Notes under the pieces: generated by a model
Seen by the model: only the letters and a program-made list of their open reading frames with translations
The model's database searches: none
What the model was told of the DNA's origin: nothing
Program-made: the position numbers and the translations under genes
Virus record (IMG/VR): IMGVR_UViG_2563366912_000001
Origin: a virus
Taxonomy: Duplodnaviria > Heunggongvirae > Uroviricota > Caudoviricetes
Direction: 5' to 3' (one strand)
DNA: 20,649 nt
In this document: positions 1,189 to 20,649 of the stretch, piece after piece
How positions within the stretch are numbered: position 1 is the first letter of the stretch
Layout of the letters: each line of letters starts with the position of its first letter

Positions 1189-1204
1189 GGCTTTCGCCCT
1201 ATGA
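1183..1204. terminator. 9-bp stem / 4-nt loop hairpin between convergent int and the 99-codon ORF; candidate bidirectional terminator
   Basis: tcatagggc-tttc-gccctatga overlapping the int TAG stop, followed by T-rich sequence. Confidence 0.4.
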
Positions 1205-1212
1205 TTTAATAA

Positions 1213-1512: not shown

Positions 1513-3446
1513 TGCATTCCTATGTTTATTCGCCTGAATGAATGGCTCATTTTTTTATTGGCGCACAGATACTCGGCAACTTCGAGTGTTTTTTCTGGCG
1601 AAGTAGCAGCTAAGAAAAGTGATCCTCTTCTATTGCGTGCCCCTCTTTTATCTAGATCAATCGCCCCAAATGCTGGGGAAAACAACTCGCCATCATATAT
1701 AACCACAGATTTCCCGATAACCGCTATCAGCCCCGTAAATTGTAACCAAGCCAATAATTTTGAACTATAAGACTTAGGATAACCACCGTCTTTATTCTTA
1801 TAAGTATGGGCTATTATAGATTCATACTTATCGATAGGAACTCTTCTTAAATCGGCATCAACAATATTCTCTGCCAATTCTAACAAAACACTATGACTCT
1901 TAAAATGCTCACGAAGAAACTCAGGGACATTTGTGATAGTCTGTTTACAAACTATATTCCCATTTAAATCTCTGTCTATGAGAACAAAATACTGCAAATC
2001 CATTAAAACATTTATTAATGTTCCCCGACTATATTTTAGTTTAGTTTGCAGTTCATCCAAGCTAATGGTTTTGAACGAGTTTACAACATCAAGAATTAAC
2101 AAAACCATTTTCGGAGATGTTGATGGCATATATGACCATGGTATAACTGGAAGGTCATTTCCTTTCAAGTAATCTCGAAAAACGTCCCAATACACTGATA
2201 ATTTTTCACCTGTTTTAATTACCATCCTATCTGAAATTAGCTCTAAAACAGTATCACTCCCAAACTCTTTAGTAACTTCATATTGACTAATCGGAGAGTT
2301 CTTTGCCACAAATTTTAAACATGAATTTTGTTTTTCAGGCCTATCTAAATCCTCATGAAATAAATTTGAGATCTGTAGTTGACTAACCAACATTTGATCC
2401 TGTGAGATACCTCCTTTTAGTTTTTTGAATACATGAATACAAAGCTTTTTCAATAACCATGGATAACCTTGAGCTTGCTGAATAAGACGCGTGCGTAAAG
2501 GTTTATTTAATTTAAACCCTGTATTTAGCTCGAAACTATTAATTAATTTAGATGAATCTTTTAGATCAAAAGGCTCAAGTTTCTTTTCAACCCTATAATC
2601 TTTTAGCCGATTCCACATTGAGTACGCTGGATTTTCATCCCCTAAAGTAATACCAGTTCTCCATGAGAACCCTACAACTAAATTGCTTTGTAGTGCCGAG
2701 ACATCGAGTGCGAATCGTTCAAATTCTTTAAATAGCCCGAATAGTTCCTCTTTCATAAAGACTTCTTCGAACTGATCAAAGAAAATAGTCAATACCTTAT
2801 CATGTTCGGAAAGGTATTTTAAACATTCCTGAACACTCTCAGATCCTATGATATCCGTAACACTCTCAATCAGGAATGGTTTTTCATATTCGATAAAACC
2901 TTCTTTGATCGCACTGCTGAAAGCTTTAACGACAGCTTCTGCCACAAAACGTCCGCCTCTAGCAGAACGGACATCGACTGGTGTAAGGAAGAATTTATTC
3001 TTCCATTTTTGATTTTTAAATCTTGAGGATAGCCTTGCTATTAAAGATGACTTTCCATTTCCTGAACCGCCTATAAGTGATAGGACTCTACTTTGAGAGC
3101 TATTTCCTCTAACATTCTCAAGATAATCCCAAACTTCTTTCTGTATATATTCGCGACCAACAAAGTCTTTCGGCTGACATGGCTTATAATCCATAAAATC
3201 GTCAGCAAGAATTATTTCACTGACAATTTCCCTTTCGTAATTTTCAGATAATTTTGAAGACGAAACAGTTTGTTCCGGTTCAGATAATATATAAAAATCA
3301 GTTACTTCCAACCCTTCAAAAAGCCCTTGCTCCTTTATAATATCACTTATGCGACTGACACTTGGAATTTTACTATTTTTATTTATAGCGAACGGCACCA
3401 CTCTTATAGGGCTACCATTTTCAACTTCTTGCAAAAGCCAAGTCAT
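1500..3446 (-). CDS. P-loop NTPase fragment (C-terminal ~80% of the interrupted gene; AAA+/STAND-like, family unassigned)
   Basis: 648-codon ORF. Walker A GGSGNGKS (LSLIGGSGNGKSSLIARL) and Walker B-like hhhhD (LTIFFDQFEEVF) about 90 aa later. Frame stays open upstream of the listed Met through 3447-3598 to the IS1 boundary. AT-rich. Confidence 0.7.
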   Translation of the reverse strand: MTWLLQEVENGSPIRVVPFAINKNSKIPSVSRISDIIKEQGLFEGLEVTDFYILSEPEQTVSSSKLSENYEREIVSEIILADDFMDYKPCQPKDFVGREYIQKEVWDYLENVRGNSSQSRVLSLIGGSGNGKSSLIARLSSRFKNQKWKNKFFLTPVDVRSARGGRFVAEAVVKAFSSAIKEGFIEYEKPFLIESVTDIIGSESVQECLKYLSEHDKVLTIFFDQFEEVFMKEELFGLFKEFERFALDVSALQSNLVVGFSWRTGITLGDENPAYSMWNRLKDYRVEKKLEPFDLKDSSKLINSFELNTGFKLNKPLRTRLIQQAQGYPWLLKKLCIHVFKKLKGGISQDQMLVSQLQISNLFHEDLDRPEKQNSCLKFVAKNSPISQYEVTKEFGSDTVLELISDRMVIKTGEKLSVYWDVFRDYLKGNDLPVIPWSYMPSTSPKMVLLILDVVNSFKTISLDELQTKLKYSRGTLINVLMDLQYFVLIDRDLNGNIVCKQTITNVPEFLREHFKSHSVLLELAENIVDADLRRVPIDKYESIIAHTYKNKDGGYPKSYSSKLLAWLQFTGLIAVIGKSVVIYDGELFSPAFGAIDLDKRGARNRRGSLFLAATSPEKTLEVAEYLCANKKMSHSFRRINIGMQCRI

Positions 3447-3589
3447 TTCTATTTCAGGATGAACTAAAAGTGTTGCACTAGTATATTTTGCCGGAATGTC
3501 ATCTGTTGGAATATCCTCAACCTTACCTGTTGCAAGTATAGATATAAGAATCTCTTTTTTATCAAAAAAAGAATAATCTATACGCTCAT

Positions 3590-3598
3590 CAAGTCTAT
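3590..3598. repeat. IS1 target-site duplication, left copy (caagtctat)
   Basis: Identical 9-mer immediately outside both IS1 ends. Confidence 0.9.
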
Positions 3599-3653
3599 GG
3601 TGATGCTGCCAACTTACTGATTTAGTGTATGATGGTGTTTTTGAGGTGCTCCA

Positions 3654-3929
3654 GTGGCTTCTGTTTCTATCAGCTGTCCCTCCTGTTCAGCTACTGACGG
3701 GGTGGTGCGTAACGGCAAAAGCACCGCCGGACATCAGCGCTATCTCTGCTCTCACTGCCGTAAAACATGGCAACTGCAGTTCACTTACACCGCTTCTCAA
3801 CCCGGTACGCACCAGAAAATCATTGATATGGCCATGAATGGCGTTGGATGCCGGGCAACTGCCCGCATTATGGGCGTTGGCCTCAACACGATTTTACGTC
3901 ACTTAAAAAACTCAGGCCGCAGTCGGTAA
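3654..3929 (+). CDS. insA: IS1 InsA (91 aa)
   Basis: Translation [43 protein letters not shown]... is the IS1 InsA zinc-finger/HTH protein. Confidence 0.95.
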
Positions 3930-4351
3930 CCTCGCGCATACAGCCGGGCAGTGACGTCATCGTCTGCGCGGAAATGGACGAACAGTGGGGCTATGTCGGG
4001 GCTAAATCGCGCCAGCGCTGGCTGTTTTACGCGTATGACAGTCTCCGGAAGACGGTTGTTGCGCACGTATTCGGTGAACGCACTATGGCGACGCTGGGGC
4101 GTCTTATGAGCCTGCTGTCACCCTTTGACGTGGTGATATGGATGACGGATGGCTGGCCGCTGTATGAATCCCGCCTGAAGGGAAAGCTGCACGTAATCAG
4201 CAAGCGATATACGCAGCGAATTGAGCGGCATAACCTGAATCTGAGGCAGCACCTGGCACGGCTGGGACGGAAGTCGCTGTCGTTTTCAAAATCGGTGGAG
4301 CTGCATGACAAAGTCATCGGGCATTATCTGAACATAAAACACTATCAATAA
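3848..4351 (+). CDS. insB: IS1 InsB frame (expressed as InsAB' transposase by -1 frameshift)
   Basis: 167-aa ORF ...[54 protein letters not shown]... overlapping insA in the -1 frame. Confidence 0.9.
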
Positions 4352-4361
4352 GTTGGAGTCA

Positions 4362-4727
4362 TTACCCAAGTCTATAATCCTCAAGCGTTGACTGAGCATC
4401 TTTACCCAAATCAGAAATTGAAAAAAGTGCAATTTTTTTAACTCTCAACCTAAATGCTTGAGAAAATGCCAAATCAACCACAGATGAATCAACTTTTTGC
4501 TGCATGAATTTACATTCTACATACAGCTTTTCATTTGATGGTGTATGAGTAGCCTGAATATCAATTTCCATGCCAGATTTTCTGACTTCCATACCATCAA
4601 TTCTATACGATTGCCGGCGGAGTATATCAGCGCAAAAATTCTCGAAAAACTTCCCTCTCGAGGTATTGGAATAATTACTAGGTACACAAACTATCAAATC
4701 TTTATTCAGTGGTAACGGCCTGGCCAT
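4362..4727 (-). CDS. Mrr-type PD-(D/E)xK restriction-endonuclease-like domain; N-terminal fragment of the interrupted nuclease-NTPase gene
   Basis: Motif GKFFENF...ADIL...SGMEIDIQA...KLYVECKF fits the Mrr catalytic core (D ... E-x-K). AGGAG RBS 7 nt upstream of ATG at 4727. ORF ends in a stop created by the IS1 terminus. Confidence 0.65.
   Translation of the reverse strand: MARPLPLNKDLIVCVPSNYSNTSRGKFFENFCADILRRQSYRIDGMEVRKSGMEIDIQATHTPSNEKLYVECKFMQQKVDSSVVDLAFSQAFRLRVKKIALFSISDLGKDAQSTLEDYRLG
4367..4375. repeat. IS1 target-site duplication, right copy (caagtctat)
   Basis: Identical 9-mer immediately outside both IS1 ends. Confidence 0.9.
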
Positions 4728-4847
4728 TTATACACTCCTTATCTCATATCCTTTTGACAAGTAAGATATCAACCTCGAGTTTCAGAAACCAGTATCTTGC
4801 GCATATTTACGACATCAAAACTTTTGGTTATGCACCCACAGCGCGCA

Positions 4848-4866
4848 GTGCTTTCCCCGCCTCGCC
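4848..4866 (-). other. cos site (19-nt cohesive-end sequence of P2/P4 type)
   Basis: Reverse complement of 4841-4866 is GGCGAGGCGGGGAAAGCACTGCGCGC, matching the P2/P4 cohesive end and adjacent bases as I recall them. Position between the cargo and psu matches the P4 map. Confidence 0.75.
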
Positions 4867-4969
4867 CGCCCGCTTTGCGGGGCGGTTTTAATGCAGTTGC
4901 ACTGACACGCTCAGACCGCGCCGGGAATGGTGCGGTCTGCAGAAAATGAGGCAGGAAAACGCATGCAAA

Positions 4970-5000
4970 GCCATGCACCTTATCGATGCATGGCTTTTTT
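4970..5000. terminator. Hairpin plus T6 just beyond the psu stop; candidate bidirectional terminator
   Basis: gccatgca-(9 nt)-tgcatggc followed by tttttt on the + strand and preceded by an A-run as seen from the minus strand. Confidence 0.4.
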
Positions 5001-5030
5001 CAGTAAAAACGGGAGGATTTTCGGGGAATT

Positions 5031-5603
5031 TTACACAGACTGACGTGATGCCAGTTGCGCACTTTTACGCGAAAAAATCATGTTCTGCGCAGGGGTGAAT
5101 TTTTCACGGCTGTCATCCACCGAAGCCGCGTCAGGCCTGAATCCGATGGTCGTTAAAATGTCACTATCCTGTGCGGAATAATTAATTTTTTCCCCCTTCG
5201 CAAGCCAGGACAGAAGGGCTTCACGCAGGGCATCTGTGGCACGCTGTATGGCACAGTTTCGGGCAATGGCCGTCAGCTCACTGTAGCCCATCAGCTCCGG
5301 TGCCAGTGCCGCCGCCAGTGCTGTGCCGTGCTGCTGCATAAAATCATTCAGCCGGTCGCGGATGCTGATGTGCTGAACGGCTTCATGCGAACGAATATAA
5401 CGACCGGCGGCCTGATTCACCTGCCATTTTCTGACTTCGATAATATTGCGTAATTCGTCCAGGCGACTGACGTTTCTGCCTTCTCCTGACTGAATCCGCA
5501 GATATTCCTGTTCGGCCGCAGCCAGCTCATTTTTGCGTTGCAGCCATGCTGCTTTGTTATTCTGACAGGTGTCAAAGGCCTGCTGTAAGGCTGTGCTTTC
5601 CAT
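5031..5603 (-). CDS. psu: P4 Psu-like polarity suppression protein (190 aa)
   Basis: Length matches P4 Psu (190 aa); last gene of the sid-delta-psu late operon arrangement. Confidence 0.85.
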   Translation of the reverse strand: MESTALQQAFDTCQNNKAAWLQRKNELAAAEQEYLRIQSGEGRNVSRLDELRNIIEVRKWQVNQAAGRYIRSHEAVQHISIRDRLNDFMQQHGTALAAALAPELMGYSELTAIARNCAIQRATDALREALLSWLAKGEKINYSAQDSDILTTIGFRPDAASVDDSREKFTPAQNMIFSRKSAQLASRQSV

Positions 5604-5676
5604 CGTTATCTCTTTCTCATCATGCTGAAGAATAAAAATACGGTGTGCGGCGACGGCCGGTGTTAACCGGCAGCCC

Positions 5677-6177
5677 TCATTCCAGACGCAGCGAATATGA
5701 TTGTGTTTTTAACCGTACTGGCGGCAGTTCCTGTTTTTCATGCAGACTTTCTGCAAGCTCGTCCGGCGTGACCGGGCGGACAATGAAGCGGTTGATGGTC
5801 TGAAGCGTTTTAAACACCAGACCACAGCCCGGATCCGTGCACACATAAAAACGCTCGGTGACTTCCTGAGACAGACGCCGCGATGTTCTTGACAGCGCAA
5901 GGCCTTTACATCTCCGACAACAATATCCGGTAACAAGCATTCTTTTCGGGCGCTTCATGCTGCCGGAGGCTGACGTCAGTGAATCGCGGTATCTCTGTTT
6001 GCCTGAAATGTATTCCATTCCTGAATCTTTACAGTCAGAGAAAAAGCTTTCACTCGCTTCAAATGTCGCAGAGCAATAAATATTCCGGCACTGTGCAATC
6101 ATTATCTTGGTGCCATCGTCCATGAAATGTGCGCGACGGGTGTGAGCAACATGTCCACACGACGGGCAGTAAATCAT
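5677..6177 (-). CDS. delta: P4 Delta-like late transcription activator (tandem Ogr-type zinc fingers, 166 aa)
   Basis: Two Ogr-like modules: CPSCGHVAHTRRAH...C..IYCSATFEASES and YCCRRCKG...VCTDPGCGLVFKT. Length equals P4 Delta. Start overlaps the sid stop. Confidence 0.9.
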   Translation of the reverse strand: MIYCPSCGHVAHTRRAHFMDDGTKIMIAQCRNIYCSATFEASESFFSDCKDSGMEYISGKQRYRDSLTSASGSMKRPKRMLVTGYCCRRCKGLALSRTSRRLSQEVTERFYVCTDPGCGLVFKTLQTINRFIVRPVTPDELAESLHEKQELPPVRLKTQSYSLRLE

Positions 6178-6908
6178 GACAGCAGTCCTCTGGCCTTAAG
6201 CTTTGCTCCCTGCTGGTCTATTTTGTCCTGCCACACCTTGCGCTGTGCCGGTGTGCCTGCCACCTCATAATCCATGTGCGGGAGTGTTGCCGCTGACAGT
6301 CCGGTCAGCCGGAGAACCGGCTCGCCGGTGAGGCTGATTTGCATCTGTTTTATTTTCTGTTCCAGCGATGATTTCACCTGCTGCATGACAGCCTTTTCCG
6401 GTGCGACGTAGCCCTGATGGCCGGTGGTGTTGGCGAGCGGATTTTCCTGTACCAGGATGCTCAGATGCATTGCCCGGACAAGCGCCTCACAGGTTTCATT
6501 CAGGGCGTGTTCCAGCTCATGCTCTGCATACAGACTCAGCAGGTGATGATGTGCCTTCCGGTAGGCGGTGGCCGTGCTGTCACACGCCCCTTTCAGGCGT
6601 TCGCGTTCAAAATTCAGCACCACGGCCAGATTGTCATATTCCTGTACCAGCTCCCGGCGTGCCACGCGCTCAATGTGGCGCTGTTTCAGCTCGTCGCTCA
6701 GGACACCACCGGCTGCACGAAAGGCCGTGCGCCAGTCGTCAGCGTCGTTTCCGTCGGCCTGCGCCAGCGCATTTTTTTCCTGCTCTGCCCGTTCAATGGC
6801 CGTGACGGTCTCATCCATCAGGCGGGCGTTCTCAAGATGGGCGGCTCTGGCCTTTTCCAGTTGTGCCAGTGCGGGTTTCAGATATTCAGGGATAGTGTGG
6901 TCAGACAT
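6174..6908 (-). CDS. sid: P4 Sid-like capsid size-determination protein (244 aa from ATG at 6908; the track's longer form uses GTG at 6926)
   Basis: ATG at 6906-6908 is preceded by AGGAG with 7-nt spacing and gives MSDHTIPEYL..., 244 aa as in P4 Sid. Helix-rich, charged protein. Confidence 0.85.
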   Translation of the reverse strand: MSDHTIPEYLKPALAQLEKARAAHLENARLMDETVTAIERAEQEKNALAQADGNDADDWRTAFRAAGGVLSDELKQRHIERVARRELVQEYDNLAVVLNFERERLKGACDSTATAYRKAHHHLLSLYAEHELEHALNETCEALVRAMHLSILVQENPLANTTGHQGYVAPEKAVMQQVKSSLEQKIKQMQISLTGEPVLRLTGLSAATLPHMDYEVAGTPAQRKVWQDKIDQQGAKLKARGLLS

Positions 6909-6942
6909 TTTCCGGCTCCTCGTCACTTCAGGTTAAGAAAAT

Positions 6943-6998
6943 TGTGACGTACACCGGACAGCAACACGACGCATTGCAGATGTGCCAGCCCTGACACA
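6943..6998. promoter_or_regulatory. Divergent late-promoter region with two TGT-N12-ACA dyads (Delta/Ogr-responsive; Psid leftward and PLL-like rightward)
   Basis: TGT-gacgtacaccgg-ACA at 6943-6960 and TGT-gccagccctgac-ACA at 6981-6998, directly upstream of sid. Confidence 0.5.
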
Positions 6999-7077
6999 GG
7001 AGACTCATCCTCACACCGGCAAGCCAGGAAAAGGTCGCAGGAAAAACCGGCTTACTGTTTGTTTTTTTATATTTTAC

Positions 7078-7181
7078 TGTTCACCTCTGTTCACCTTAAT
7101 AAAAAAGATAAGTAATACAGTAAGTTAAAGGATGAACAATCGCAGTAATGACTGTTCACCGTCTGTTCACCACTGTTCACC
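7078..7181. repeat. ori-like cluster of TGTTCACC type-I iterons (alpha-binding repeats)
   Basis: Five direct TGTTCACC copies (7078, 7088, 7153, 7164, 7174) plus an imperfect inverted copy near 7132; AT-rich flanks. Confidence 0.6.
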
Positions 7182-7460
7182 CGCTCATGGACTTTTTGTG
7201 CTGTTTACTACTGTTTGTTTTTATTAATTCGCCGGGAATGAATAAGAAGAAACGATTTGTATTTCACTATAAAAATTACAAATTGCTTTAAGTGGCTTTA
7301 AATGACTTTAAGTGGAAATGAACAAAAAACACACAACCATTGTAAGGCTGCCGGAACAAATCCCCCCTGTTGCGTCTGCTGAAAATATTCACAAAATAAA
7401 GCGCTACCCGAAGCCGGACGGACTTATCCGGTGCTGTATGGACATTAACGAGGTAGCCCG

Positions 7461-7727
7461 ATGCAAGCTGTTTTTTCTTCCCCGTCTCCCGCCCCTGTGA
7501 CGCCACTGATGCCGCTGCCGGACATCACACAGGAGCGTTTTTTACGTCTTCCGGAAGTGATGCACCTGTGCGGCCTGTCACGCTCGACCATCTATGAACT
7601 CATCCGTAAGGGGGAATTTCCGCCGCAGGTGAGTCTTGGCGGTAAAAATGTGGCCTGGCTGCACTCTGAAGTCACCGCATGGATGGCCGGCCGCATTGCC
7701 GGACGCAAACGGGGGTACGACGCATGA
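7461..7727 (+). CDS. AlpA/Vis-family small DNA-binding regulator (prophage excision/late-promoter regulator; start uncertain, alternative ATG at 7509)
   Basis: ...[51 protein letters not shown]... is the AlpA-type HTH signature. Sits as first gene after the PLL-like promoter, as P4 vis does. Confidence 0.7.
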
Positions 7728-7821
7728 TGATGCCTGTTCTGCAAAAAGTCCCTTTTTCTGGCTTGCCTTTTTCCGGCATTTGCGGATATAGTTTTTCCGC
7801 TGCCGCAAAATCGGCAGCCGG

Positions 7822-7847
7822 GCGTGAGAACCCGTGTAACTCGAAGG
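7822..7847 (+). promoter_or_regulatory. seqA-like target element of the P4-type RNA immunity system
   Basis: gcgtgagaac...ctcgaagg repeated at 8065-8106 and complementary to 8020-8040. Confidence 0.35.
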
Positions 7848-7855
7848 CGACATAT

Positions 7856-7877
7856 GACGCGCCATGCGTCTTTTTTT
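7856..7877 (+). terminator. Intrinsic terminator-like hairpin in the early-operon leader (candidate immunity terminator)
   Basis: gacgcgccatgcgtc stem-loop followed by T7. Confidence 0.5.
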
Positions 7878-7939
7878 GTGTCGCAATCAACGCCACAGAG
7901 CGCCAGATTATGGTGTGGCGTGTGGTTTGCCGTGCAGGT

Positions 7940-8060
7940 ATGATCCTGTTCGCAATCGCATGTTATGCCACTGAGTCAATGGTAGCTCAGGCGGGGCAGC
8001 CTCCGGGCTGGCCGGTATTCTTCGAGGCCGGTATTCTCACCCCCGTCTGGGCTATCGCCA
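7940..8060 (+). ncRNA. Candidate CI-like immunity RNA region containing a seqB-like element (8020-8040); boundaries approximate
   Basis: Structured GC-rich non-coding stretch between the leader terminator and the next RBS. cttcgagg...attctcac is the complement of the seqA/seqC motifs. Contains a tRNA-like GGTAGCTCAG segment. Confidence 0.3.
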
Positions 8061-8064
8061 TCGA

Positions 8065-8106
8065 GCGTGAGAACTCCGGCGATAGCAGTTATTTGCTACT
8101 CGAAGG
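8065..8106 (+). promoter_or_regulatory. seqC-like element overlapping the RBS of the 65-codon ORF
   Basis: gcgtgagaac...ctcgaaggagg; the AAGGAGG RBS for the ATG at 8117 lies inside the repeat. Confidence 0.35.
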
Positions 8107-8116
8107 AGGCTGCCTT

Positions 8117-8314
8117 ATGGCTACAACCCTTACCCCCTCACACCCTGAATTTGTCTTTGTGTTTGCGGCTGTCCGTCGCGCAGACCGTCATCCCCGTATC
8201 TGCATGCTTCGCACCGTCGCCGGTGATGAACGCAGCGCCCGCCGTTCCCTTGTCCGTGACTATGTGCTCTCCCTTGCTGCCCGTCTGCCGGTGGTGGAGG
8301 TGTCCCGTGCGTAA
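8117..8314 (+). CDS. Small early-operon protein (65 aa; possible kil-like gene, function unassigned)
   Basis: AAGGAGG 7 nt upstream of the ATG. The track's longer 211-codon form has no support upstream. Confidence 0.5.
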
Positions 8315-8594
8315 TAAAAAAGCCCCTCAGACCGTCTCAGCACGTCATGACGCCCGTGAACACCTCAGCATTGAGGCTTACCATAAGCTCAACCGCGCCA
8401 GCGCCGTATCCCAGTTTGTTGGGGGTGATTTGATTCACCGTGAACTCTCCGGCCTGCATCAGCTCTACATTCCGCATATTTTCAGCTACCTGAATGAAGA
8501 TATTGATTTTGTGCTGAATGAGCTGAAAGCCAAAGGCCTGTGCCGCGATTTTCTCGCCCAGCAGAAAGACCGGGGAGACAGGACGCATGTTTGA
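8307..8594 (+). CDS. Small early-operon protein (95 aa; candidate epsilon-like derepressor)
   Basis: GTG start with GGAGG 6 nt upstream; start overlaps the preceding stop and its stop overlaps the next start (ATGTTTGA). Confidence 0.5.
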
Positions 8595-9042
8595 TTTTCC
8601 CCAGCCCGGTGAGATTTACCGTTCTGCCGGTTTTCCCGATGTGGCCGTGGTCGGCATTCTGGAAGACGGTATTCCGTGGGAAATGCCGTACCGCTGCCCG
8701 GACATTGTCTGGAACCCGTACCGCCGTAAATTCAGTATCCTTGTGCGTATCCTCGATGACGGGCGCACCACAGACATCCCGCTGGGGCGTTTTCTGCGGG
8801 AATTTACCTGTGACCGTCCTGACCTGTTTAAACGCAGCCCCGTAAACCGGCATGCGGTACTGAAAGAAATGGCCGGAGACCCGGAATTACAGAAATGGCG
8901 GGAGAAATATCTGGATATTTACCCGCAGGACACTGTTCCGGCCAGCCGGGCGGCACCGGTGGCGCGGGAATGGCGGGAAATTCCCCGCACGGAGCCTGAC
9001 CCGGAAATCACCCCGGATAACAGTTACCGCAATTATCTGTAA
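8587..9042 (+). CDS. P4 orf151-like hypothetical protein (151 aa)
   Basis: Translationally coupled to the upstream ORF; same length as P4 orf151; typical codon usage. Confidence 0.55.
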   Translation: MFDFPQPGEIYRSAGFPDVAVVGILEDGIPWEMPYRCPDIVWNPYRRKFSILVRILDDGRTTDIPLGRFLREFTCDRPDLFKRSPVNRHAVLKEMAGDPELQKWREKYLDIYPQDTVPASRAAPVAREWREIPRTEPDPEITPDNSYRNYL

Positions 9043-9177
9043 TTAAAAAACGATACCCGAAAAATTAAATGTGCGTATTCGCGCAGGGATACGCACGTCT
9101 TCAGGAGACGCAGATATGCCTTATCAGTTAATGCAACCGGCACGGAATGCAGTCATCTGTCACAGGGAGGAAAACAA

Positions 9178-9498
9178 ATGAAAACACCCTTACCGCCCGT
9201 CTTACGCGCTGCCCTTTACCGTCGCGCTGTCGCCTGTGCCTGGCTGACCGTGTGCGAACGTCAGCACCGCTACCCGCATCTCACCCTTGAGTCACTGGAG
9301 GCGGCCATCGCCGCTGAGCTGGAAGGCTTTTATCTGCGCCAGCACGGTGAGGAAAAAGGGCGTCAGATAGCCTGTGCCCTGCTGGAAGATTTAATGGAAT
9401 CCGGCCCCCTGAAGGCCGCGCCGTCGCTGTCCTTTCTCGGGCTGGTTGTGATGGATGAACTCTGTGCCCGTCACATAAAAGCGCCGGTACTGCACTGA
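9178..9498 (+). CDS. Hypothetical early-operon protein (106 aa)
   Basis: GGGAGG RBS upstream of the ATG; lies directly upstream of the primase gene. Confidence 0.55.
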
Positions 9499-11343
9499 AG
9501 GAGAACAACACCATGAAAATGAACGTAACCGCCACCGTCAGCCATGCGCTCGGCCACTGGCCGCGTATTCTCCCGGCGCTGGGGATTCAGGTGCTGAAGA
9601 ACCGTCATCAGCCCTGTCCGGTCTGTGGCGGGAGTGACCGCTTCCGTTTTGATGACAGGGAGGGGCGTGGCACCTGGTACTGCAATCAGTGTGGTGCCGG
9701 TGACGGCCTGAAACTGGTTGAAAAGGTGTTTGGTGTTTCCCCGTCCGACGCGGCCGCAAAGGTGGCTGCCGTGACCGGCTGCCTGCCCCCGGCTGACCCG
9801 GCAGTGACGGCCGCCGCCGGTGCTGAAACAGAAGCCGCCCGGAAGAACGCCGCCGCACTGGCACAAACCCTGATGGCAAAAACCCGTCCCGGAACCGGTA
9901 ACGCCTACCTGACCCGCAAGGGCTTTCCCGGCCGGGAATGCCGGATGCTGACCGGCACACACAGAGCCGGTGGCGTGAGCTGGCGCGCCGGTGACCTTGT
10001 GGTGCCACTGTATGACGACAGCGGCGAACTGGTTAACCTTCAGTTAATCAGTGCTGACGGCCGTAAGCGCACCCTGAAAGGCGGACAGGTCAGGGGCACC
10101 TGTCACACCCTTGAAGGACAGAATCAGGCAGGAAAACGTCTGTGGATAGCGGAGGGATACGCGACCGCACTTACCGTGCATCACCTGACCGGTGAAACGG
10201 TGATGGTGGCGCTTTCTTCCGTGAACCTCCTTTCTCTGGCCAGCCTTGCCCGACAGAAGTATCCGGCCTGTCAGATTGTCCTTGCCGCAGACCGTGACCT
10301 CAGCGGTGACGGCCAGACAAAAGCCGCCGCAGCCGCAGATGCGTGTGAGGGCGTTGTTGCCCTGCCGCCGGTCTTCGGTGACTGGAATGATGCCTTCACG
10401 CAGTACGGCGGGGAGGCCACCCGTAAGGCCATTTACGATGCCATCCGGCCACCGGCTGAAAGCCCGTTCGACACCATGAGCGAAGCGGAGTTTTCCGCCA
10501 TGAGTACCAGCGAAAAGGCCATGCGTATCTATGAGCATTACGGCGAGGCGCTCGCGGTTGATGCCAACGGCCAGCTTCTGTCCCGCTATGAAAATGGTGT
10601 CTGGAAGGTGCTGCCACCACAGGACTTTGCCCGGGATGTGGCCGGGCTGTTTCAGCGTCTGCGCGCGCCGTTCTCCTCCGGGAAGGTGGCCTCCGTGGTG
10701 GACACCCTGAAGCTGATTATTCCGCAGCAGGAAGCCCCCTCCCGCCGCCTGATTGGCTTTCGTAACGGCGTGCTCGACACGCAGAACGGCACGTTCCACC
10801 CGCACAGTCCGTCACACTGGATGCGCACCCTGTGCGATGTGGATTTCACCCCGCCGGTGGACGGTGAAACACTGGAGACCCACGCCCCCGCGTTCTGGCG
10901 CTGGCTTGACCGTGCCGCCGGTGGCCGTGCGGAAAAACGCGACGTGATTCTGGCCGCACTGTTTATGGTGCTGGCAAACCGCTACGACTGGCAGCTCTTT
11001 CTGGAGGTGACCGGTCCCGGCGGCAGCGGCAAAAGTATCATGGCCGAAATAGCCACCCTGCTGGCTGGTGAGGATAACGCCACGTCGGCCACCATCGAGA
11101 CGCTGGAATCCCCGCGTGAACGTGCCGCGTTAACTGGCTTCTCACTGATACGCCTGCCGGACCAGGAAAAATGGAGCGGCGACGGAGCCGGACTCAAGGC
11201 CATCACCGGCGGCGATGCGGTGTCCGTTGACCCGAAATACCGGGATGCGTACTCCACGTGCGTATTACCGTGAAGGAGATCGGTGAGTAACATCGATGGA
11301 GATCGGTTCGTGTCACTTTCACAGAACCGTTTTTAAATTACCT

Positions 11344-12093
11344 TCACTGATCTCCTTCGGTCAACGGAGATTGTATTTTCCGCATTGATTCTCCTTTAAG
11401 TTCGATCTTGATACTGCCATGAACCAGTCGATCTAGGATGGCATCCGCATGTGTGGAGTCTCCGATCATTTTGTACCAGTTTTCCACCGGCAACTGGCTC
11501 ACTACGATGATTGAGCCTCGTTGGTACATCAGATCCACTATTTCCAGCAGGTCGCTACGCTGTTCTGATGAGAGAGGTTCCAGCCCCCAGTCATCCAGAA
11601 GCAGCAGATCGCTATTATTCAGCCTGGTCAAAAGTTTGCTGTATCTTCCATCAGCATGCCCCTGATAGCACTGTTCCATCAGCGCTTTAAGGCGATAATA
11701 GTAGACCTTGTATCCCTGTCGGCAGGCATTATGACCAAGTGCACATGCCAGGAACGTTTTACCGCTGCCGGTGGCCCCGGTCAGTAAAATATTTTGTTTC
11801 AGGGTTAACCAGTTTCCCTGACTGAGTGAACGGATGAGGGCCCTGTCCAGCCCTCTATTGTTACGATAATCCAGCTTTGATAACTCAGCATTAAGTCTGA
11901 ACCGTGCATGTTTGATCAGACGCTCTGCCTTCCTGTTTTCACGGCAGGTTAGTTCTTCTGCTGTCAGTAATGACAGGCGTTCTTCGAAGCCCAGCTCCTG
12001 GTATGTGCCCGGCTGAGCAAGTTGCTTTTTAAGCGCATCACGGAAGCCGGTGAGTTTAAGTGCGGTCAGTTGTTCGTAAAGATGATTCATCAT
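11344..12093 (-). CDS. istB: IS21-family IstB helper ATPase (249 aa)
   Basis: Walker A LLTGATGSGKTFLACALG and Walker B LLLLDDWG; gene follows istA with an 11-nt gap. Confidence 0.9.
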   Translation of the reverse strand: MMNHLYEQLTALKLTGFRDALKKQLAQPGTYQELGFEERLSLLTAEELTCRENRKAERLIKHARFRLNAELSKLDYRNNRGLDRALIRSLSQGNWLTLKQNILLTGATGSGKTFLACALGHNACRQGYKVYYYRLKALMEQCYQGHADGRYSKLLTRLNNSDLLLLDDWGLEPLSSEQRSDLLEIVDLMYQRGSIIVVSQLPVENWYKMIGDSTHADAILDRLVHGSIKIELKGESMRKIQSPLTEGDQ

Positions 12094-12104
12094 TGGATCC
12101 CGTA

Positions 12105-13646
12105 TCAGTGGTAATACTCACTGCCGCGTACGTTTTCGTGTTCCATCGTGGATAACAGATCTGGTTTTGGATCCTGAACAGGTTGTTTATCCAGACCTTT
12201 TTCCAGGATCGATTTAATACCTGACAGACGCCATACCTTTGTTTTCAGAGCTCTTGCACATGCTGCATTAAGTCTGGCTTTACTGTATTTTTTATGAAGG
12301 TTCAGGAGTCCAAGGCAGAAGCGATAGCTTTGTTCCGGATGTGGACGAGAGTTCAGTATATGAAGCACATAACTATGAGTTTCACTGCCTATGTGCCCCG
12401 CCCATTCCAGAAGACGCTCTGGCGTCCAGGTGGCATGCTGTCGATGAGCTTCAGGCATGTGCTCGTTGCGGGTACTGTAGCCATAAGTACGCTTGCGCGG
12501 GTGCACAGCAACCTCCTGCCCCTGATTGAAGAGTCTTACCAGTTCTCCGGAGATCCATGCTTCCAGTTGCTGGCCTAACAGCGAACATGGAACCGAGTAG
12601 TAATGTTTGTCGATTTCCACGTGGTAATCGGCATGAACTCTGACTTTCTTCACCAGGGTGTAACTGTAACTGGCTTCAGGAAGAGGCTTCAGTGCGGGTT
12701 TATCAAGCTGGATGAAGAGTTCTGCACGTGAATAACCCAACTTCTGCATTATTTTGTTATTCAGTCTTTCCAGCAACTCCCGAATGCGCTGATTAAGCGA
12801 TGCAAGGCTGTAGAAGATCTCATGCCTGATTCGGGCCATGATCCAGCGTTCAACAACCTGAACGCCAACTTCAGCTTTGGCTTTATCTTTCGGTTTACGT
12901 GGCCGCGCAGGCAAAACTGCGACATTATAATGCTCAAGCATCTGCTGGTAGGTAGGGTTAACGTCAGGATCATACTTACATGCCCTGGATGTGGCGCTTT
13001 TCAGATTGTCCGGAACAACAAGTTCAGGAACGCCACCCAACCACTGGAAGCAGCGAACATGACTCATCACCCAGTCTTCAAGATGCTGAGACCAGGTGGC
13101 CTCTGCCCATGTGTAACTTGATGCCCCGAGAACAGCTACGATGACCTGAGCAGTTCTTATTTCTCCGGTCTCAGGGTCGGTAACGCCAACGGTAGGTCCA
13201 CAGTAATCAACGAAAAGTTTTTCGCCAGCTTTATGTACCTGACGCATTGATGGTGAAGTGGTTTTGAGCCATTCACGGTACATCCGGCAGTAATGGTTAT
13301 AGCTGTAAAAACCGCCTGGATTACGCTCACAGTATTCTTCCCAGAGTAGCTGCAGCGTCACGCATTTATTACGCAGTTCCCGGTGTACTGTAGCCCAGTC
13401 AGGCAGAGAGTGCTTCTTCATCTTAACCTGGGTCTGAAGGAACGCATGTTTTAGTTTTGTATCATCCCATCCTGTAGGTAAGGGCCACTGCTTTATGCCA
13501 AGTTGAGCCGCCCGATTAGCATATCTGGATACAACGGAAGGGGAGATTGCAAGACTACGACCAATTTGTCGATGGCTGAGTCCAACACCGTATTTAAGCC
13601 TAAGAATTTCTTTAAGTTTTCTCATAGAAATTGGAACTGTTGGCAT
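12105..13646 (-). CDS. istA: IS21-family IstA transposase (513 aa)
   Basis: N-terminal HTH (LSHRQIGRSLAISPSVVSRY) followed by an integrase-core-like region; AAGGA RBS; paired with istB. Confidence 0.9.
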   Translation of the reverse strand: MPTVPISMRKLKEILRLKYGVGLSHRQIGRSLAISPSVVSRYANRAAQLGIKQWPLPTGWDDTKLKHAFLQTQVKMKKHSLPDWATVHRELRNKCVTLQLLWEEYCERNPGGFYSYNHYCRMYREWLKTTSPSMRQVHKAGEKLFVDYCGPTVGVTDPETGEIRTAQVIVAVLGASSYTWAEATWSQHLEDWVMSHVRCFQWLGGVPELVVPDNLKSATSRACKYDPDVNPTYQQMLEHYNVAVLPARPRKPKDKAKAEVGVQVVERWIMARIRHEIFYSLASLNQRIRELLERLNNKIMQKLGYSRAELFIQLDKPALKPLPEASYSYTLVKKVRVHADYHVEIDKHYYSVPCSLLGQQLEAWISGELVRLFNQGQEVAVHPRKRTYGYSTRNEHMPEAHRQHATWTPERLLEWAGHIGSETHSYVLHILNSRPHPEQSYRFCLGLLNLHKKYSKARLNAACARALKTKVWRLSGIKSILEKGLDKQPVQDPKPDLLSTMEHENVRGSEYYH

Positions 13647-14450
13647 AGGTATCCTTTACCGGAATGGCAAAAGATACAGATCAACACACCTGTGAAGTTC
13701 CAATAACATTGATGGAGATCACTGAATAACAAAATGAGTCAAAAGTGATCTCCATCGATGTTATTCAGCGATCTGTTCAAATGTTATTACCCGATCTCGA
13801 TGGAAGTTATTGAGTGATCTCCTTTCATGAAAATACGCACTCCACGCACATCCCGGCGGTAATTCTGGCCGTGAACAATAACCCGATGCGCTTCACCGAC
13901 CGCAGCGGCGGCGTGTCACGCCGGCGGGTGATTATTCACTTCCCGGAACAGATAGCCCCGCAGGAGCGCGACCCGCAGCTTAAGGACAAAATCACCCGCG
14001 AGCTGGCGGTCATCGTGCGTCACCTGATGCAGAAGTTCAGCGACCCGATGCTCGCCCGGTCACTGCTTCAGTCCCAGCAGAACTCAGACGAGGCACTGAA
14101 CATCAAACGGGATGCCGACCCGACGTTTGATTTTATCGGCTATCTGGAAACCCTGCCGCAGACCAGCGGCATGTATATGGGGAACGCCAGTATCATCCCG
14201 CGTAATTACCGTAAATACCTCTATCACGCCTATCTGGCCTACATGGAGGCAAACGGCTACCGGAATGTACTCAGTCTGAAAATGTTCGGGCTGGGGCTGC
14301 CGGTGATGCTGAAGGAATACGGACTGAATTACGAGAAGCGCCATACCAAACAGGGGATACAGACCAACCTGACGCTGAAAGAGGAAAGCTACGGCGACTG
14401 GCTGCCAAAATGTGACGACCCTGCAACAACCTGACCATCATGACTCATCT

Positions 14451-14474
14451 GACCGGCATCTGCCGGTCTTTTTT
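14451..14474 (+). terminator. Rho-independent terminator after alpha
   Basis: gaccggca-tc-tgccggtc followed by T6, 17 nt after the alpha stop. Confidence 0.6.
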
Positions 14475-14483
14475 CATCCCTGA

Positions 14484-14797
14484 ATCCCCCGAAGGTGAAC
14501 AATCCAGTGTTCACCCTTCACCGTATGTTCACCCGTTATCACACTGAAATCAAAAGAGAAAAACGAAAGGTGAACAGTGTGAACAATCAAATCAAAAAAA
14601 ACTTTTTTTCTTCCTGTGTGATTTTCAGTGCGGAGGATTAATCGCCGGTATGAGTCACACCGGCAGAATGCCGGAGGTGAAGAATCGAATGTTCACCCTT
14701 CACCCATTATTCACCACCTATCCAACTGAAATAAAAGGAAAAAACAGAAAGGTGAACAGTGTGAACAGTTCTTCCGAAAAAAAATTTTTTTCCTGTA
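14484..14797. repeat. crr-like cis replication region: two ~125-bp direct repeats, each with TGTTCACC/GGTGAACA iterons
   Basis: Copy 1 about 14484-14608 and copy 2 about 14674-14797 share gaaggtgaa...atgttcacccttcacc...aaaggtgaacagtgtgaaca...A/T runs. Confidence 0.65.
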
Positions 14798-15077
14798 CGA
14801 TATAGCATCAATCCAAGTAAAAATGCGCTTTCATTTCACATTAACTTACAGCCATTGGTATACGATTAGGTATACGCACAAAAACTGAATTAAACAAAAT
14901 CATTAAAAATCAAAGCAATACAATATTTATTCAAACTCCGCCAGCCAATCATGATTGGACGGTATAAGGACAACACCAATAAAAACAGGAAGTTAGCAGT
15001 CTCAGCAGGACACCGACCAGACGGTGAAGAGACATAAAAGGATACGCAAAGGAGCCGCGGCTCCTGGTGACATGAAA

Positions 15078-15098
15078 GCCCACAGATGTGGGCTTTTT
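15078..15098. terminator. Hairpin plus T5 downstream of the autotransporter fragment; candidate bidirectional terminator
   Basis: gcccac-agat-gtgggc followed by ttttt, 10 nt from the stop at 15108. Confidence 0.45.
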
Positions 15099-15107
15099 CG
15101 TTGATGG

Positions 15108-18100
15108 TCAGAACGACCAGTTCACACCAGCTACCCCGTTCCACGGGGATTCCACACCGGCACCATGGCTATACCCCACCCCAAGATGCCCGCTTAACGT
15201 ACTGCTGAATGAGGCTTTAATACCTGCCTGGTATATTCCACGTCTGCCCGACAAATCATTGACGAAATTACCGTCACTATTCACTTTCACCCGGTTATCA
15301 TCGACAAATTCTTTGCGCACAGCCGCCTTCAGCCACGGCTCAACTTCCATACCGTTCCCCAGACGCATGTTGTAACTCAGCGTTGCACCCAGTTCACGAT
15401 ATAAACTGCGGGTATCGACTGATTTCGATTCCATGCCATTGGATAAATGATATTCAGGGTTATCAGCGGTGAACCCCCGTTAACGATGCATACGGCGTCA
15501 GGTTCCAGTTACCATCGGTAAATCGCATCCCGGTTTCAATGTGACCGCCCAGCCCGTAGCTGCGATAACTGCCGTTGGCGGCTCCACCGCTGCCAACCGT
15601 GGAGTCGCGAGCTTCGGTACCTGCTAATACCAATAAATTACCGCCATTTTCCAGCAACATATTGGTCGCTAAATTGCCGGAAATGGAAAAAGTGCCGTAC
15701 TGGTGAGTACCGCTGATTTCAATACCGTTAGCCGTGCTCGTCTGGAGAGCGGCACCGCTGTTCTGGACGATATCTGTCGCTTTGCCATTATCGTTAACTG
15801 TCAGCGTACCGCCTTCATTGATCTTTGTTTTTATTGCCTCTCCGTTAGCTGAAACTGTTTGTATTCCGCCGTCGTTAATCGTTGTCTCATTCGCCACCCC
15901 CTCGACGATTTGTTCGCCGCCGGTGAGCGTCGTGCCTGTCGCAGTGGCTTTTGTTTTGACGATCTCCCGTCCGCCCGTATTGACCTGTGTTTTGTCAGAA
16001 GAGGTGTCTGACTCCACGGTTAACACGCCGCCATTTGCCAGCAGGATATTGTTCGCCGCACCCTGCTCGATGCTGAACGCGACGCCATCCGCGCGTGTTC
16101 CTGTGACCCGCGTCGCCCTGGTGGTTGCAACCAAAGCGCCCTGGCTACTCTGCTGTATCCCCGTTGCGCTGCCTTTCTCCCGCACATCGAGTGTGCCGCC
16201 GTCATTAAGCACCGAGTTTTCAGCCAGACCGCCCTCATTAACTACCTGTGAACACCCATTAATAATGGAACCTTCCGCTATCCCGTTTGCCATAATTTGT
16301 TGTAGGCCAGAGACGATATCGGTATTGATCGCCTTACCATAATTCTGAACGGTTTGTGTGCCGCCATTGATGTGCGTTTTGTCAGTTGACCCACCATCAA
16401 CAATTTGTTCACCACTTTCAATATTTGCCTCAGTGGCTAAACCATATACCGTTTGCTTGCCACCTTTGATATTTGCTTTATCAGAAGTGGCACTGGCATA
16501 TATTGTTTGGGTGCCAGCACTATTAAGTACAGTGCCAACATCTTTTCCATAAACATCCATTTTGCCGTTGGCATTAATAATCGTATCAACTGCCCGGGAA
16601 CCAGTGACGACTGTTAATGAGCCAGCGTTTTCCAGCACTACATTTTTAGCTTCTGAATTCCTGATGTAGAAAGCATCACCATAACTGTTGGTTCCTTCGA
16701 TAAGGGTTCCGGAAGTTGTGGAAGCAATTAATGCGCCGCCGGATTGTTGCTCAACATGCTTAGCCTCACCACCGTCCTGAACCTCCAGAACGCCACCATT
16801 ATTAAGTCTGGTGGTATCTGTTTTAGCCTCCTTCTGGACAATCAGCTTACCGCCAGCATCAACGGTAGTATTTTTCGCCGAGGTTTTAGCCACTACCGTC
16901 AGTTCGCCGGTATTTTCCAGCACAACATAATTAGCCTCCCCTCCGGTAATAGTGAAGTGAGAGAGCTTGTTGTATCCTTCAATATCAGTCCCTGCGCCCG
17001 TGTTGGCAACTAAAGCACTGCCCGTCTCCTGGTTAACCCCATGTGCAATACCGCCGGTATAGACAATCAGCGAGCCTCCGGCGCTAATATTGCTGCCAAT
17101 TGCCGTACCATCTTTCTCAACAACTTGCTGGCTCCCGGAGGATATAATTGTTGTGTCAGCTTTCCCACCGCTTTTGATATTTTGCGTTCCGCTGTTGATA
17201 TTGGTGCCTGTGGCTATGCCATAATTATTAAGATTCTGTGTGCCACCATTAATTATGGTATTTGTCGCGTTTCCTGCAACATCCATAACCCCGCCATTAT
17301 CTATTCGGGTCGCATCAGCTTTAGCATTCGTTAAAACTGACATTGTTCCTTTATCTTTAATAATCGTCTTGTTTGCGGAATGAGATACTTCTAAATGGCC
17401 TCCATTTTCCAGCAACACATTGTCTTCCACTTTATTGTGGATGGAGAATGCACCTTCACTATTCGTACCGCTCACCGTCGTACCGTTAGTGTTTGTTTTT
17501 AAAATTGCACCATCGTGCTGGGTAACATTTGTTGCCGTACCACCACTAACATCAAGCACGCCACCGGAATAAACTTCAATAACATCCGAGGTGCTGGTGT
17601 TATCAACAATTTGCGTGCCACCAGAATAGATCTGCGTAATTTTTGCCGTTGACTTACTATTCAGAGACTGAGTTCCGCCTTCAATCGTCGTGTCCAGCGC
17701 ACGGCTCTCATATACTCTTTGCTCACCGCCATTTTTAATGGTTGTTGTTTCTACTGTGCTCTGTTCAACATACTGTCGACCACCATTTATGGTTGTGTTC
17801 GTTGCCAGACTTCCTTGTACTACGTCCTGAGAGCCAGACTTATTTATCGTTGTACCATCAGCATGCCCTTGAACTTTTACTATCTGGCTACCACCATCAA
17901 TGAGTATTCCATTCGCACTCCCTCCCTCTACGCGTGAAGCACCGCCCTTAATTGTCGTTCCATTGCTGATACCCCCTTTATAAACGTCCTGATTGCCACT
18001 CTCGATTGTCGTACCTGTGGAAATACCCCCGTCATGAATTGACTGTCTGCCACCGTTAATGGTTGTATTATTAGCCTGCCCCACAAAATTGTTATGACTT

Positions 18101-18492
18101 CCTATATCTTGATATCCACCAGATTCAATAAGACTTCCATTAGATACCCCGCCATGAACATTCTGCTGGCCATGGTTGATAATATGAGTGTTATTTGTTG
18201 TACCTCGTTCATCCACTTTTTGGTTGCCATCTACAGTCTCATCGTTTACCACACCAATAACATCAGGAGTGAAGGCCGCCATACCGGGCGGGGCATATAT
18301 CAAGGCAGATATCAATAAGGAAAGTACTGAGCGGCGACAATAATGGGGACTGGTCCTGTTCATAAATTTCATCCTCTGAAAAGTGAATACTGAGTAGCGT
18401 TTAAGCGACCTTAGCTCTGCTGCAACATCAGCCCACAGGCACCAGACCAGGGGATTCATCCTGAAGAGACAGCGCAAGTGTATTGTGTTCAC
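15108..18492 (-). pseudogene. AIDA-I-type autotransporter adhesin, disrupted: passenger ORF (15463-18492, probable start near 18363-18372) and beta-domain C-terminal ORF (15108-15434) in different frames
   Basis: Extended signal peptide MKFMNRTSPHYCRRSVLSLLISALIYAPPGMAA. About 900 aa of degenerate beta-helix repeats (TTINGG.Q..). C-terminus ...LGVGYSHGAGVESPWNGVAGVNWSF is a beta-barrel terminal strand. Frames separate at a C5/G5 tract (15474-15478). Translocator portion looks too short for a 12-strand barrel. Confidence 0.75.
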
Positions 18493-18701
18493 CGCTCATC
18501 AAAGACATCATGATGAAATGATGATATTCCACATAAGAAAGAAGCATTTTTTAAACGCAGTGCGCTGAAGTATGGTTGGATAAAAAAGTCAATCTATTCA
18601 GGGAATACGGGGGTATTCTTTTCTTTCGACAATCAGGTCGTCGGCAAAATAAAATGATTTACATAATCGTTTCTGATGAATATCTTCTGCTCACATAAAA
18701 A

Positions 18702-18941
18702 TCACACAATAACTTTGAGATCGCAGATTCTTTTACTTTTACAGCATTCGTCCCCCCATTGTTGGGCAAATATAGATTGGGCCAGAGCACGAAAGTTAAT
18801 ACCACGTTTGCACAGCTCCTCCAACAGCACGACAAGATGCCACATACTGCGCCCCAGTCGGTTCGGTTTACAGACTACCCGTGCGTCCACCGCCGATAAT
18901 GTCCTGAGCAGTTTTTTCAGTCCGGACCTCCTGCCACGGTT
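18702..18941 (-). pseudogene. Remnant of a Pin/Hin/Gin-family serine DNA invertase
   Basis: ...RSGLKKLLRTLSAVDARVVCKPNRLGRSMWHLVVLLEELCKRGINFRAL parallels the invertase core ...RPGLKRALKRLQKGDTLVVWKLDRLGRSMKHLISLVGELRERGINFRSL. In-frame stop at 18942-18944; upstream frames show stops; C-terminus divergent. Confidence 0.6.
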
Positions 18942-19275: not shown

Positions 19276-20649
19276 TCATTGAAAACTGCTTTTAGAACTT
19301 GATACAACGGGACTAGTCACAACAGGACTATTCTCAACGGGATCATCCTCAGAGGAACTATCATCAAAGTCATCATCCATAAATAAAATATCATCGAATG
19401 GTGCCACGCCCGTGATGAGTTTTATTTTATTATTACGATCAGTCAAGACTCCACTTAAACCGTTTTCGCTCACAGGTTTTAATGATTTTTCATTACTCTT
19501 GTTGTAAGCAGGCGCATTAAAAATACACGGAGTATCAAGATCAAACAATGACGTTCCCCAGTTCACATATTGAATATCATAGTTACTGAAGTTCTGTCCA
19601 GAAAAGAAGCATCCCTTAAAATCCAATCCACCTAAATTATATAAACCATCCTCTTCTTTTTGGAGAGTAATGTTAATTTTGGCTATCTCCCGGACATCAT
19701 CGCCATTTTTATATTTGAATACCGTTTCAAGATTTTCCCCACACAGTTTGACTTCTGGAAATAATTTGAAATCAAAGCCTATATTATTATGTATCAACGT
19801 AGATGAACAAAAGATGGAGAAAGCTTGCAGTGCTGAATTATAGCTTTCGATTTTATCCTGAGGCTGCGCTCTTGGTAAAAACTCATAGCAACATTCATAA
19901 AAATTAAGTAGAAACTCTGAAGACCTTCCATTTTTATCAAATAATATCCCCTTGAACTCATTCACAAACGCATCTTTTTTTTCTTGAATATCTATGGGGT
20001 GTTCCTTTGACTCTGACAAAGATGAAATCTCATCTATTTTGTTTTCATATGAATTACGTGATTCCATACAGACATTTGGCGGCGTTTCTAAAATAACACT
20101 ACGCGTACTACTTGGCTTAAGTAAACCAACATGAAAATCACTTTTTCTTATATTATCGAAAAGGTTCTGTTCATTTCTTTTAGCGCATTCAAAAAACTGA
20201 TCGGCATTATTTTTATTCGATAATTTTTTAGTTTCAGAAAACACATTTTCATTGTTTTCCAGCTTTAGTTTAATGAGAAGATTTTCCCAGACCTGCTTGC
20301 TTAAACATATTACGTCAGGCTCACCAGAACTAACTAACTCGTGATTATTATTAAAGTGTACGTTGAATACCTTTAAGTTATTTTCACCAACTTCATATTT
20401 AATACGTTTTAATTGTTCTCCAGCTCCCATAATGACAAAGGCGTTGCCTTCTTGATATATACATTCAGACATCATTTTTTGTAAAGTTTCAAGAGCACCG
20501 CGATACGTCTCTGATGCAGCTTCCTTACAAATTAATTTTAAAATACTATGAGCTAGTAGCTCCATGTGTTTAGAAGATTTATTTTCATTATAACTTCCAC
20601 TACCCAAAACTGCGCTAGCGTTAAATCCGTTGCTTTTACTAACTAACAT
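19276..20649 (-). CDS. AT-rich hypothetical protein (457+ aa) with pentapeptide-like repeats and an acidic Ser-rich tail; start at the window edge, may be partial
   Basis: Long ORF in AT-rich DNA. Ser/Asn-rich N-terminus. Repeat-like block NLGGLDFKGCFFSGQNFSNYDIQYVNWGTSLFDLDTPCIFNAPA. Acidic tail DDDFDDSSSEDDPVENSPVVTSPVVSSS. Confidence 0.5.
   Translation of the reverse strand: MLVSKSNGFNASAVLGSGSYNENKSSKHMELLAHSILKLICKEAASETYRGALETLQKMMSECIYQEGNAFVIMGAGEQLKRIKYEVGENNLKVFNVHFNNNHELVSSGEPDVICLSKQVWENLLIKLKLENNENVFSETKKLSNKNNADQFFECAKRNEQNLFDNIRKSDFHVGLLKPSSTRSVILETPPNVCMESRNSYENKIDEISSLSESKEHPIDIQEKKDAFVNEFKGILFDKNGRSSEFLLNFYECCYEFLPRAQPQDKIESYNSALQAFSIFCSSTLIHNNIGFDFKLFPEVKLCGENLETVFKYKNGDDVREIAKINITLQKEEDGLYNLGGLDFKGCFFSGQNFSNYDIQYVNWGTSLFDLDTPCIFNAPAYNKSNEKSLKPVSENGLSGVLTDRNNKIKLITGVAPFDDILFMDDDFDDSSSEDDPVENSPVVTSPVVSSSKSSFQ

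Follow-up and report, generated by a model that had tools for sequence, protein, structure and literature searches.

The closest described counterparts of the locus analysed here are YpjA of Escherichia coli K-12 (b2647) and EhaD of EHEC O157:H7, type Va autotransporter adhesins of the AIDA-I kind. The intact K-12 gene has 4,581 bp and encodes 1,526 amino acids, in which Pfam recognises 13 AIDA-repeat stretches, a Pertactin domain at residues 1057-1179, a proline-rich stretch at 1179-1240 and an Autotransporter beta-domain at 1265-1504, the last covering profile positions 1-254 of PF03797. In type Va secretion, translocation of a passenger requires its own linker and a complete barrel. The solved translocators nearest to the C-terminal domain of YpjA are those of Bordetella Vag8 (7AKV, E=2e-26) and BrkA (3QQ2, E=5e-24), and they serve here as a ruler for a complete helix-plus-barrel unit.

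Reviews group YpjA with the biofilm-associated autotransporters AIDA-I and Ag43 (PMC9289746), and surveys of adhesins record whether ypjA is present or not (PMC12547504). A literature search for the specific deletion junction described below found no paper describing it, ypjA being treated by presence/absence or by family placement. Since public RefSeq records flag the identical sequence as a pseudogene, the allele is rated as already known.

Identity and parts of the ypjA locus

The window is the whole stretch of DNA that was analysed, 20,649 nucleotides in length. When positions 14900-18700 were compared by megablast with 5,426 complete E. coli genomes, they matched the locus annotated as 'ypjA: adhesin-like autotransporter YpjA/EhaD'. 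Judged by its sequence, the minus-strand region 15108-18363, from the RefSeq-type ATG to the original stop, is ypjA/ehaD, the gene of an E. coli autotransporter adhesin. It matches K-12 ypjA closely at the nucleotide level throughout, in two collinear blocks that overlap by 10 nt (97.6% over the passenger and 96.4% over the 3' end), and it lies on the ssrA side of the same chromosomal neighbourhood, whose order (ileY-ypjCB-recombinase remnant-ypjA-ssrA side) is the same in K-12 and in many other strains. The window allele shares with YpjA/EhaD the N-terminus, the AIDA repeats and the terminal strand GVNWSF but, unlike them, it is without K-12 residues 927-1366, carries a +1 frameshift and has the last ~160 residues of the translocator divided between two frames. 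We consider, with a probability of about 0.93, that it is a non-functional, vertically inherited allele of this type Va adhesin gene; as such it is a fixed, lineage-wide pseudogene of an ordinary kind. A reading of the DNA made from the sequence alone, without database searches, had recognised an autotransporter adhesin in this place, and the gene is indeed ypjA/ehaD itself.

The allele is 100% identical to ypjA of strain EC1722-1. RefSeq calls the gene of that strain a pseudogene, with the remark 'incomplete; missing C-terminus', and annotates after it, as a protein of its own, a 108-aa 'autotransporter outer membrane beta-barrel domain-containing protein'. The list of open reading frames gives the same division: a minus-strand ORF at 15463-18492, with 1009 aa counted from the first GTG, and a second minus-strand ORF at 15108-15434, with 108 aa and the C-terminus GVNWSF. 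The sequence-only reading had accordingly ended the passenger at 15463 and placed the beta-domain in another frame, and all its coordinates are correct, including those of the C5/G5 run (15474-15478), except for the start of the gene, which in RefSeq is the ATG at 18363 (MNRTSPHY...) and not the GTG at 18492, with 966 aa up to the premature stop.

The retained N-terminal part (15592-18363, minus strand) comprises a signal sequence region, predicted from orthology, and the AIDA-repeat passenger (PF16168, 12 stretches, E=3.3e-139); window residues 1-924 correspond to K-12 residues 1-926 and are collinear with them save for a 6-nt indel. AIDA repeats are the only Pfam matches of the 966-aa product. 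The leftover ORF at 15108-15434 encodes the last beta-barrel strands, matching only positions 164-254 of the 255 of PF03797 (E=2.8e-11), and is annotated in RefSeq as a separate small protein, WP_000444409.1. Directly after the original stop, at 15078-15093 on the minus strand, a GC-rich hairpin (GCCCAC-atct-GTGGGC, then TTT) can be read from the sequence and is kept in K-12; it is a possible terminator, and a consensus terminator scan did not call this hairpin, calling instead a weaker site at 15045-15059.

Two lesions and their effect on the translocator

From the alignment with K-12 ypjA it is evident that exactly 1,320 bp are absent from the window, in frame, which corresponds to 440 codons (K-12 residues 927-1366). 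In K-12 the left breakpoint lies between ...ACGGTTGGCA and AGGGTGGGGCAATG and the right one between ...AAAATGAGCA and GCGGTGGAGCCGCC, while the window joins ...ACGGTTGGCA directly to GCGGTGGAGCCGCC; the crossover is therefore located in the 3-nt 'GCA' at 15591-15593. This lies inside an imperfect 13-nt repeat, GCA-NN-GGTGG-N-GC, that spans the junction (15581-15593, minus strand) and is present at both breakpoints of intact alleles with 10 of the 13 positions matching. The breakpoint sequences are also the same in three further full-length alleles, against which the missing segment measures 1,314-1,326 bp and is in each case divisible by 3. The junction pattern would fit microhomology-mediated illegitimate recombination, and the in-frame deletion most likely arose by slippage or microhomology recombination of this illegitimate type between the imperfect repeats.

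Across the junction the translation reads ...STVG followed by SGGAANGSYRSYGLGGHIETGMRFTDGNWNLTPYASLTG VHR and the stop. The first 42 codons past the junction (15466-15591, minus strand) are thus 39 beta-domain codons, equivalent to K-12 residues 1367-1405, and three out-of-frame codons (VHR). The shift is due to the second lesion. The coding strand around the run reads ...TTAACGGGGGTTCACCGCTGA..., and the alignment of K-12 AACGGGGTTCACC with window AACGGGGGTTCACC places a +1 insertion in the G4 run of intact alleles, giving G5 (15474-15478, minus strand; C5 on the plus strand) and a premature TGA at 15463-15465, 42 codons past the junction. The insertion is read as slippage of one G in the G4 run.

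When one G is removed in silico, a continuous product of 1084 aa is obtained (...SLTGFTADNPEYHLSNGMESKSV...GVNWSF), in which the passenger is followed by exactly 160 residues, not enough to form a barrel. This agrees with the sequence-only reading, which had proposed that a single-base change in the homopolymer fuses the frames, had counted about 160 residues after the last passenger repeats and had suspected an additional internal deletion. That reading also described the gene as lacking part of its translocator; the start of the barrel is indeed lost, but the loss is larger, since the 440 codons also include the C-terminus of the passenger, the pertactin-type (autochaperone-type) domain PF03212, the proline-rich linker and, immediately before the barrel, the stretch that contains the helix in homologues of solved structure. 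The alignment that it had proposed for sizing the deletion was run here against K-12 ypjA, and the Pfam matches reveal no complete beta-barrel: even the frame-repaired C-terminus matches only positions 98-254 of the 255 of PF03797, so that the first 97 positions, ~38% of the profile, are gone. In the alignment with BrkA (3QQ2) the retained window sequence begins at about position 125 of 284, and approximately 7 of the 12 strands would remain, an estimate made by proportion without computed strand boundaries.

Compared with a functional type Va autotransporter, the window allele has the beta-helical repeat passenger. Its reading frame does not run unbroken between the signal peptide and the C-terminal aromatic residue, and it has no complete 12-strand barrel (the real ORF carries 164-254 where the full-length PF03797 is expected) and no linker helix with an autochaperone or pertactin-type junction, PF03212 and the proline-rich linker being both absent. 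From established autotransporter biology, a 966-aa passenger fragment bearing the signal peptide might still be synthesised and reach the periplasm. Since it has no autochaperone region, no linker helix and no complete 12-strand barrel, it would be neither inserted by BAM nor displayed and would be degraded. Because a type Va passenger needs its own linker and a complete barrel, we infer with high confidence that surface display is lost in this allele; carrier strains would then be without the adhesion and biofilm activity mediated by YpjA.

Another decayed autotransporter in the same species is the ycgI remnant beside minE/ymgJ, a beta-domain pseudogene of nearly all E. coli. As in the window allele, the gene has decayed, but ycgI stands at a different locus and has lost nearly its whole ORF, with the last ~114 codons left. 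Over 355 nt it is 96.6% identical to the 3' end of the window allele, and a further ~300 nt upstream are also 90% identical; the extract used (positions 4001-4661 of the ymgJ-minE region of AR_0019) aligned to window positions 15098-15452 and 18393-18700. The E, D and G residues by which the window allele differs from K-12 YpjA are present in the paralogue too, and gene conversion of a few residues between the two loci is a possible source of them. A derivation of the 3' end from ycgI was considered and found unneeded: the whole 3' block is collinear with K-12 ypjA at 96.4%, ycgI covers the last 355 nt only, and an origin from ypjA is thus sufficient.

Linkage of the junction and the G5 run in complete genomes

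The distribution of both lesions was evaluated in the same 5,426 complete E. coli genomes. A 301-nt query spanning the junction and the G run was found at full coverage in 323 of them, and all 60 of the 60 matches listed span 301 nt, hence contain G5. A 39-mer able to seed only on the exact C-GGGGG-T context was present in 321 genomes, once in each. With a chimeric query composed of a junction 40-mer and the G5 39-mer, either piece was detected in 324 genomes and both in 320, which means that the two lesions occur together in about 6% of complete E. coli genomes. The corresponding query with the junction and the G4 context (a G4 38-mer) found both pieces in 0 of the 5,426 genomes, while the G4 context without the junction occurs in about 2,475. 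The deletion and G5 are completely linked across carriers. One genome with the junction but not the exact G5 context, AH01, was inspected; it differs by a T-to-G substitution next to the run, which does not restore the frame. The junction plus G5 offers an easy way to recognise by sequence an E. coli lineage of considerable size (320 of 5,426 complete genomes).

As for possible intermediates, a repaired 300-nt query representing the in-frame state (deletion with G4) had no 100% match, and no genuine frameshift-first allele (full length with G5) was found, the sole match being BHUCD02 (NZ_CM183444.1, extracted locus 1026-5607). In this record an apparently full-length ypjA carries G5, and identity to K-12 is 100% in the 1,320-bp segment, whereas both flanks differ from K-12 by ~1-8% per 200 nt; the chromosome length, moreover, is about that of MG1655. 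On these grounds we rejected BHUCD02 as a real intermediate, and it looks like a reference-filled consensus of a strain really carrying the deletion. A nearby T variant was also tried as a marker of the deletion lineage and was rejected, given that 42 genomes have G4 with T; the four of these that were inspected are without the 1,320-bp deletion or have other lesions.

These counts bear directly on two other explanations of the split. The sequence-only reading had left it between a decaying gene and a sequencing error at the homopolymer, and the survey sustains the former. Indels in homopolymers are a common class of error, and assembly artefacts do occur at the ypjA locus, as in BHUCD02, so that a real gene with one ORF could in principle have been split by sequencing or assembly. 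However, the exact G5 context is found always once in 321 independent complete genomes, 320 of them with the junction, and G4 is confined to genomes without the junction; a random error would not track one haplotype. Moreover, even if the run were an error, the 1,320-bp deletion leaves no functional barrel, and we judge this explanation exceedingly improbable. The G run could alternatively be regarded as a switch turning the adhesin on and off, by slipped-strand mispairing (phase variation) or by ribosomal +1 frameshifting (recoding), considering that the two frames meet at the homopolymer and that some E. coli autotransporter adhesins are phase-variable by other mechanisms; Ag43, for instance, varies through Dam/OxyR. 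The tract has only 5 nt, however, and shows no length polymorphism among the 324 carriers, 320 of which have exactly G5, the one variant inspected being a substitution. In the 'on' product the linker, the autochaperone and 97 of the 255 profile positions of the barrel would still be missing, and further frameshifts lie upstream in some carriers. This is not the behaviour of a contingency locus, and a switch of this kind is extremely unlikely.

Ongoing decay, meaning and genomic setting

The decayed allele is found in diverse surroundings. It adjoins a P4-like satellite island in the window, in EC1722-1 and in STEC346, a CP4-57-like island in 537-20 and another integrase island in O121 RM8352, and in AH01 no island intervenes between it and ssrA. 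The 966-codon passenger ORF is intact in the window, EC1722-1 and 537-20, and at least 29 genomes whose 301-bp core is identical to that of the window also keep it open. O121 RM8352 and AH01 have one extra passenger frameshift each, at different places, and ypjA of STEC346 is annotated with an internal stop; these further, different lesions in some carriers indicate that decay is continuing. In the O121 allele the 3' half is almost exactly shared and the differences are clustered in the 5' half, which suggests recombination there. The variety of islands at ssrA, together with the extra lesions, agrees with a pseudogene that decays neutrally and is passed down in a large lineage. Other E. coli strains have lost the adhesin through independent events at other positions of ypjA: 90-3040 has an internal stop, 2013C-4974 a large 5' deletion and CD09 an IS3 insertion. 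The window allele is set apart from these by its specific 1,320-bp junction and G5.

An intact ORF of 966 codons in the window, EC1722-1 and 537-20, in an allele as frequent as this one, could be taken to mean that the truncated gene has retained or gained a function, as a beta-helix fragment that is periplasmic or released, through export by a paralogous barrel, or by adaptive loss of the adhesin. The independent passenger frameshifts and stops in O121 RM8352, AH01 and STEC346 argue that there is no constraint on the ORF, and the frequency of the allele is explained by descent within a large lineage. No mechanism is known by which a classical autotransporter passenger could be exported in trans when its own linker is missing. 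That the truncated gene has kept or acquired a function is accordingly very unlikely. Little more weight is given to the related proposals that loss of YpjA was selected, for example by removal of a surface antigen or aggregation factor, or that the 966-codon ORF, where it is still open, yields a beta-helix fragment, periplasmic or released in vesicles, that has kept some role; these too we hold to be very unlikely.

The neutral, decaying pseudogene that we favour matters mainly for annotation, for genotype-to-phenotype calls and for avoiding false 'adhesin-positive' strains. Screens scoring 'ypjA' or 'ehaD' by presence or absence would count the carriers as positive, although the gene is predicted to be unable to make a displayed adhesin. 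Likewise WP_000444409.1, the 108-aa 'autotransporter beta-barrel domain-containing protein' of many RefSeq genomes, is a pseudogene fragment.

Left of ypjA, positions 1-14945 of the window are occupied by a P4-like satellite prophage integrated at ssrA, which matches EC1722-1 and STEC346 at 99.9-100%. Its genes include an integrase (1-1188), psu (5031-5603), ogr/delta (5677-6177), sid (6174-6926) and a primase-helicase (9513-14434), the last split into 9513-11273 and 13814-14434 by an IS21-family element at 11259-13832 (istA 12105-13646, istB 11344-12093), annotated as ISEc12 in related genomes. Identity to the island-free AH01 stops at 14945, exactly where ssrA of AH01 begins, and positions 14929-14945 hold a degenerate copy of the 3' end of ssrA (GGCTGGCGGAGTTTGAA), probably the distal attachment-site repeat of the island. 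The hotspot gene of the satellite (1213-4731, minus strand), with Mrr_cat and an nSTAND1 NTPase, is a candidate anti-phage gene; it is intact in EC1722-1 and STEC346 (913 aa, WP_000113630.1) but broken twice in the window, by IS1 at 3599-4366 and by a contraction of (TGAA)3 to (TGAA)2, a 4-nt change near 1535.

On the other side of ypjA a 168-nt recombinase remnant (18771-18938, minus strand), a pseudogene in all records examined, separates it from ypjCB (19276-20649, minus strand; DUF5507/DUF5508, 457 aa), which is intact in the window but a pseudogene in K-12-type strains, O121, AH01 and other strains.
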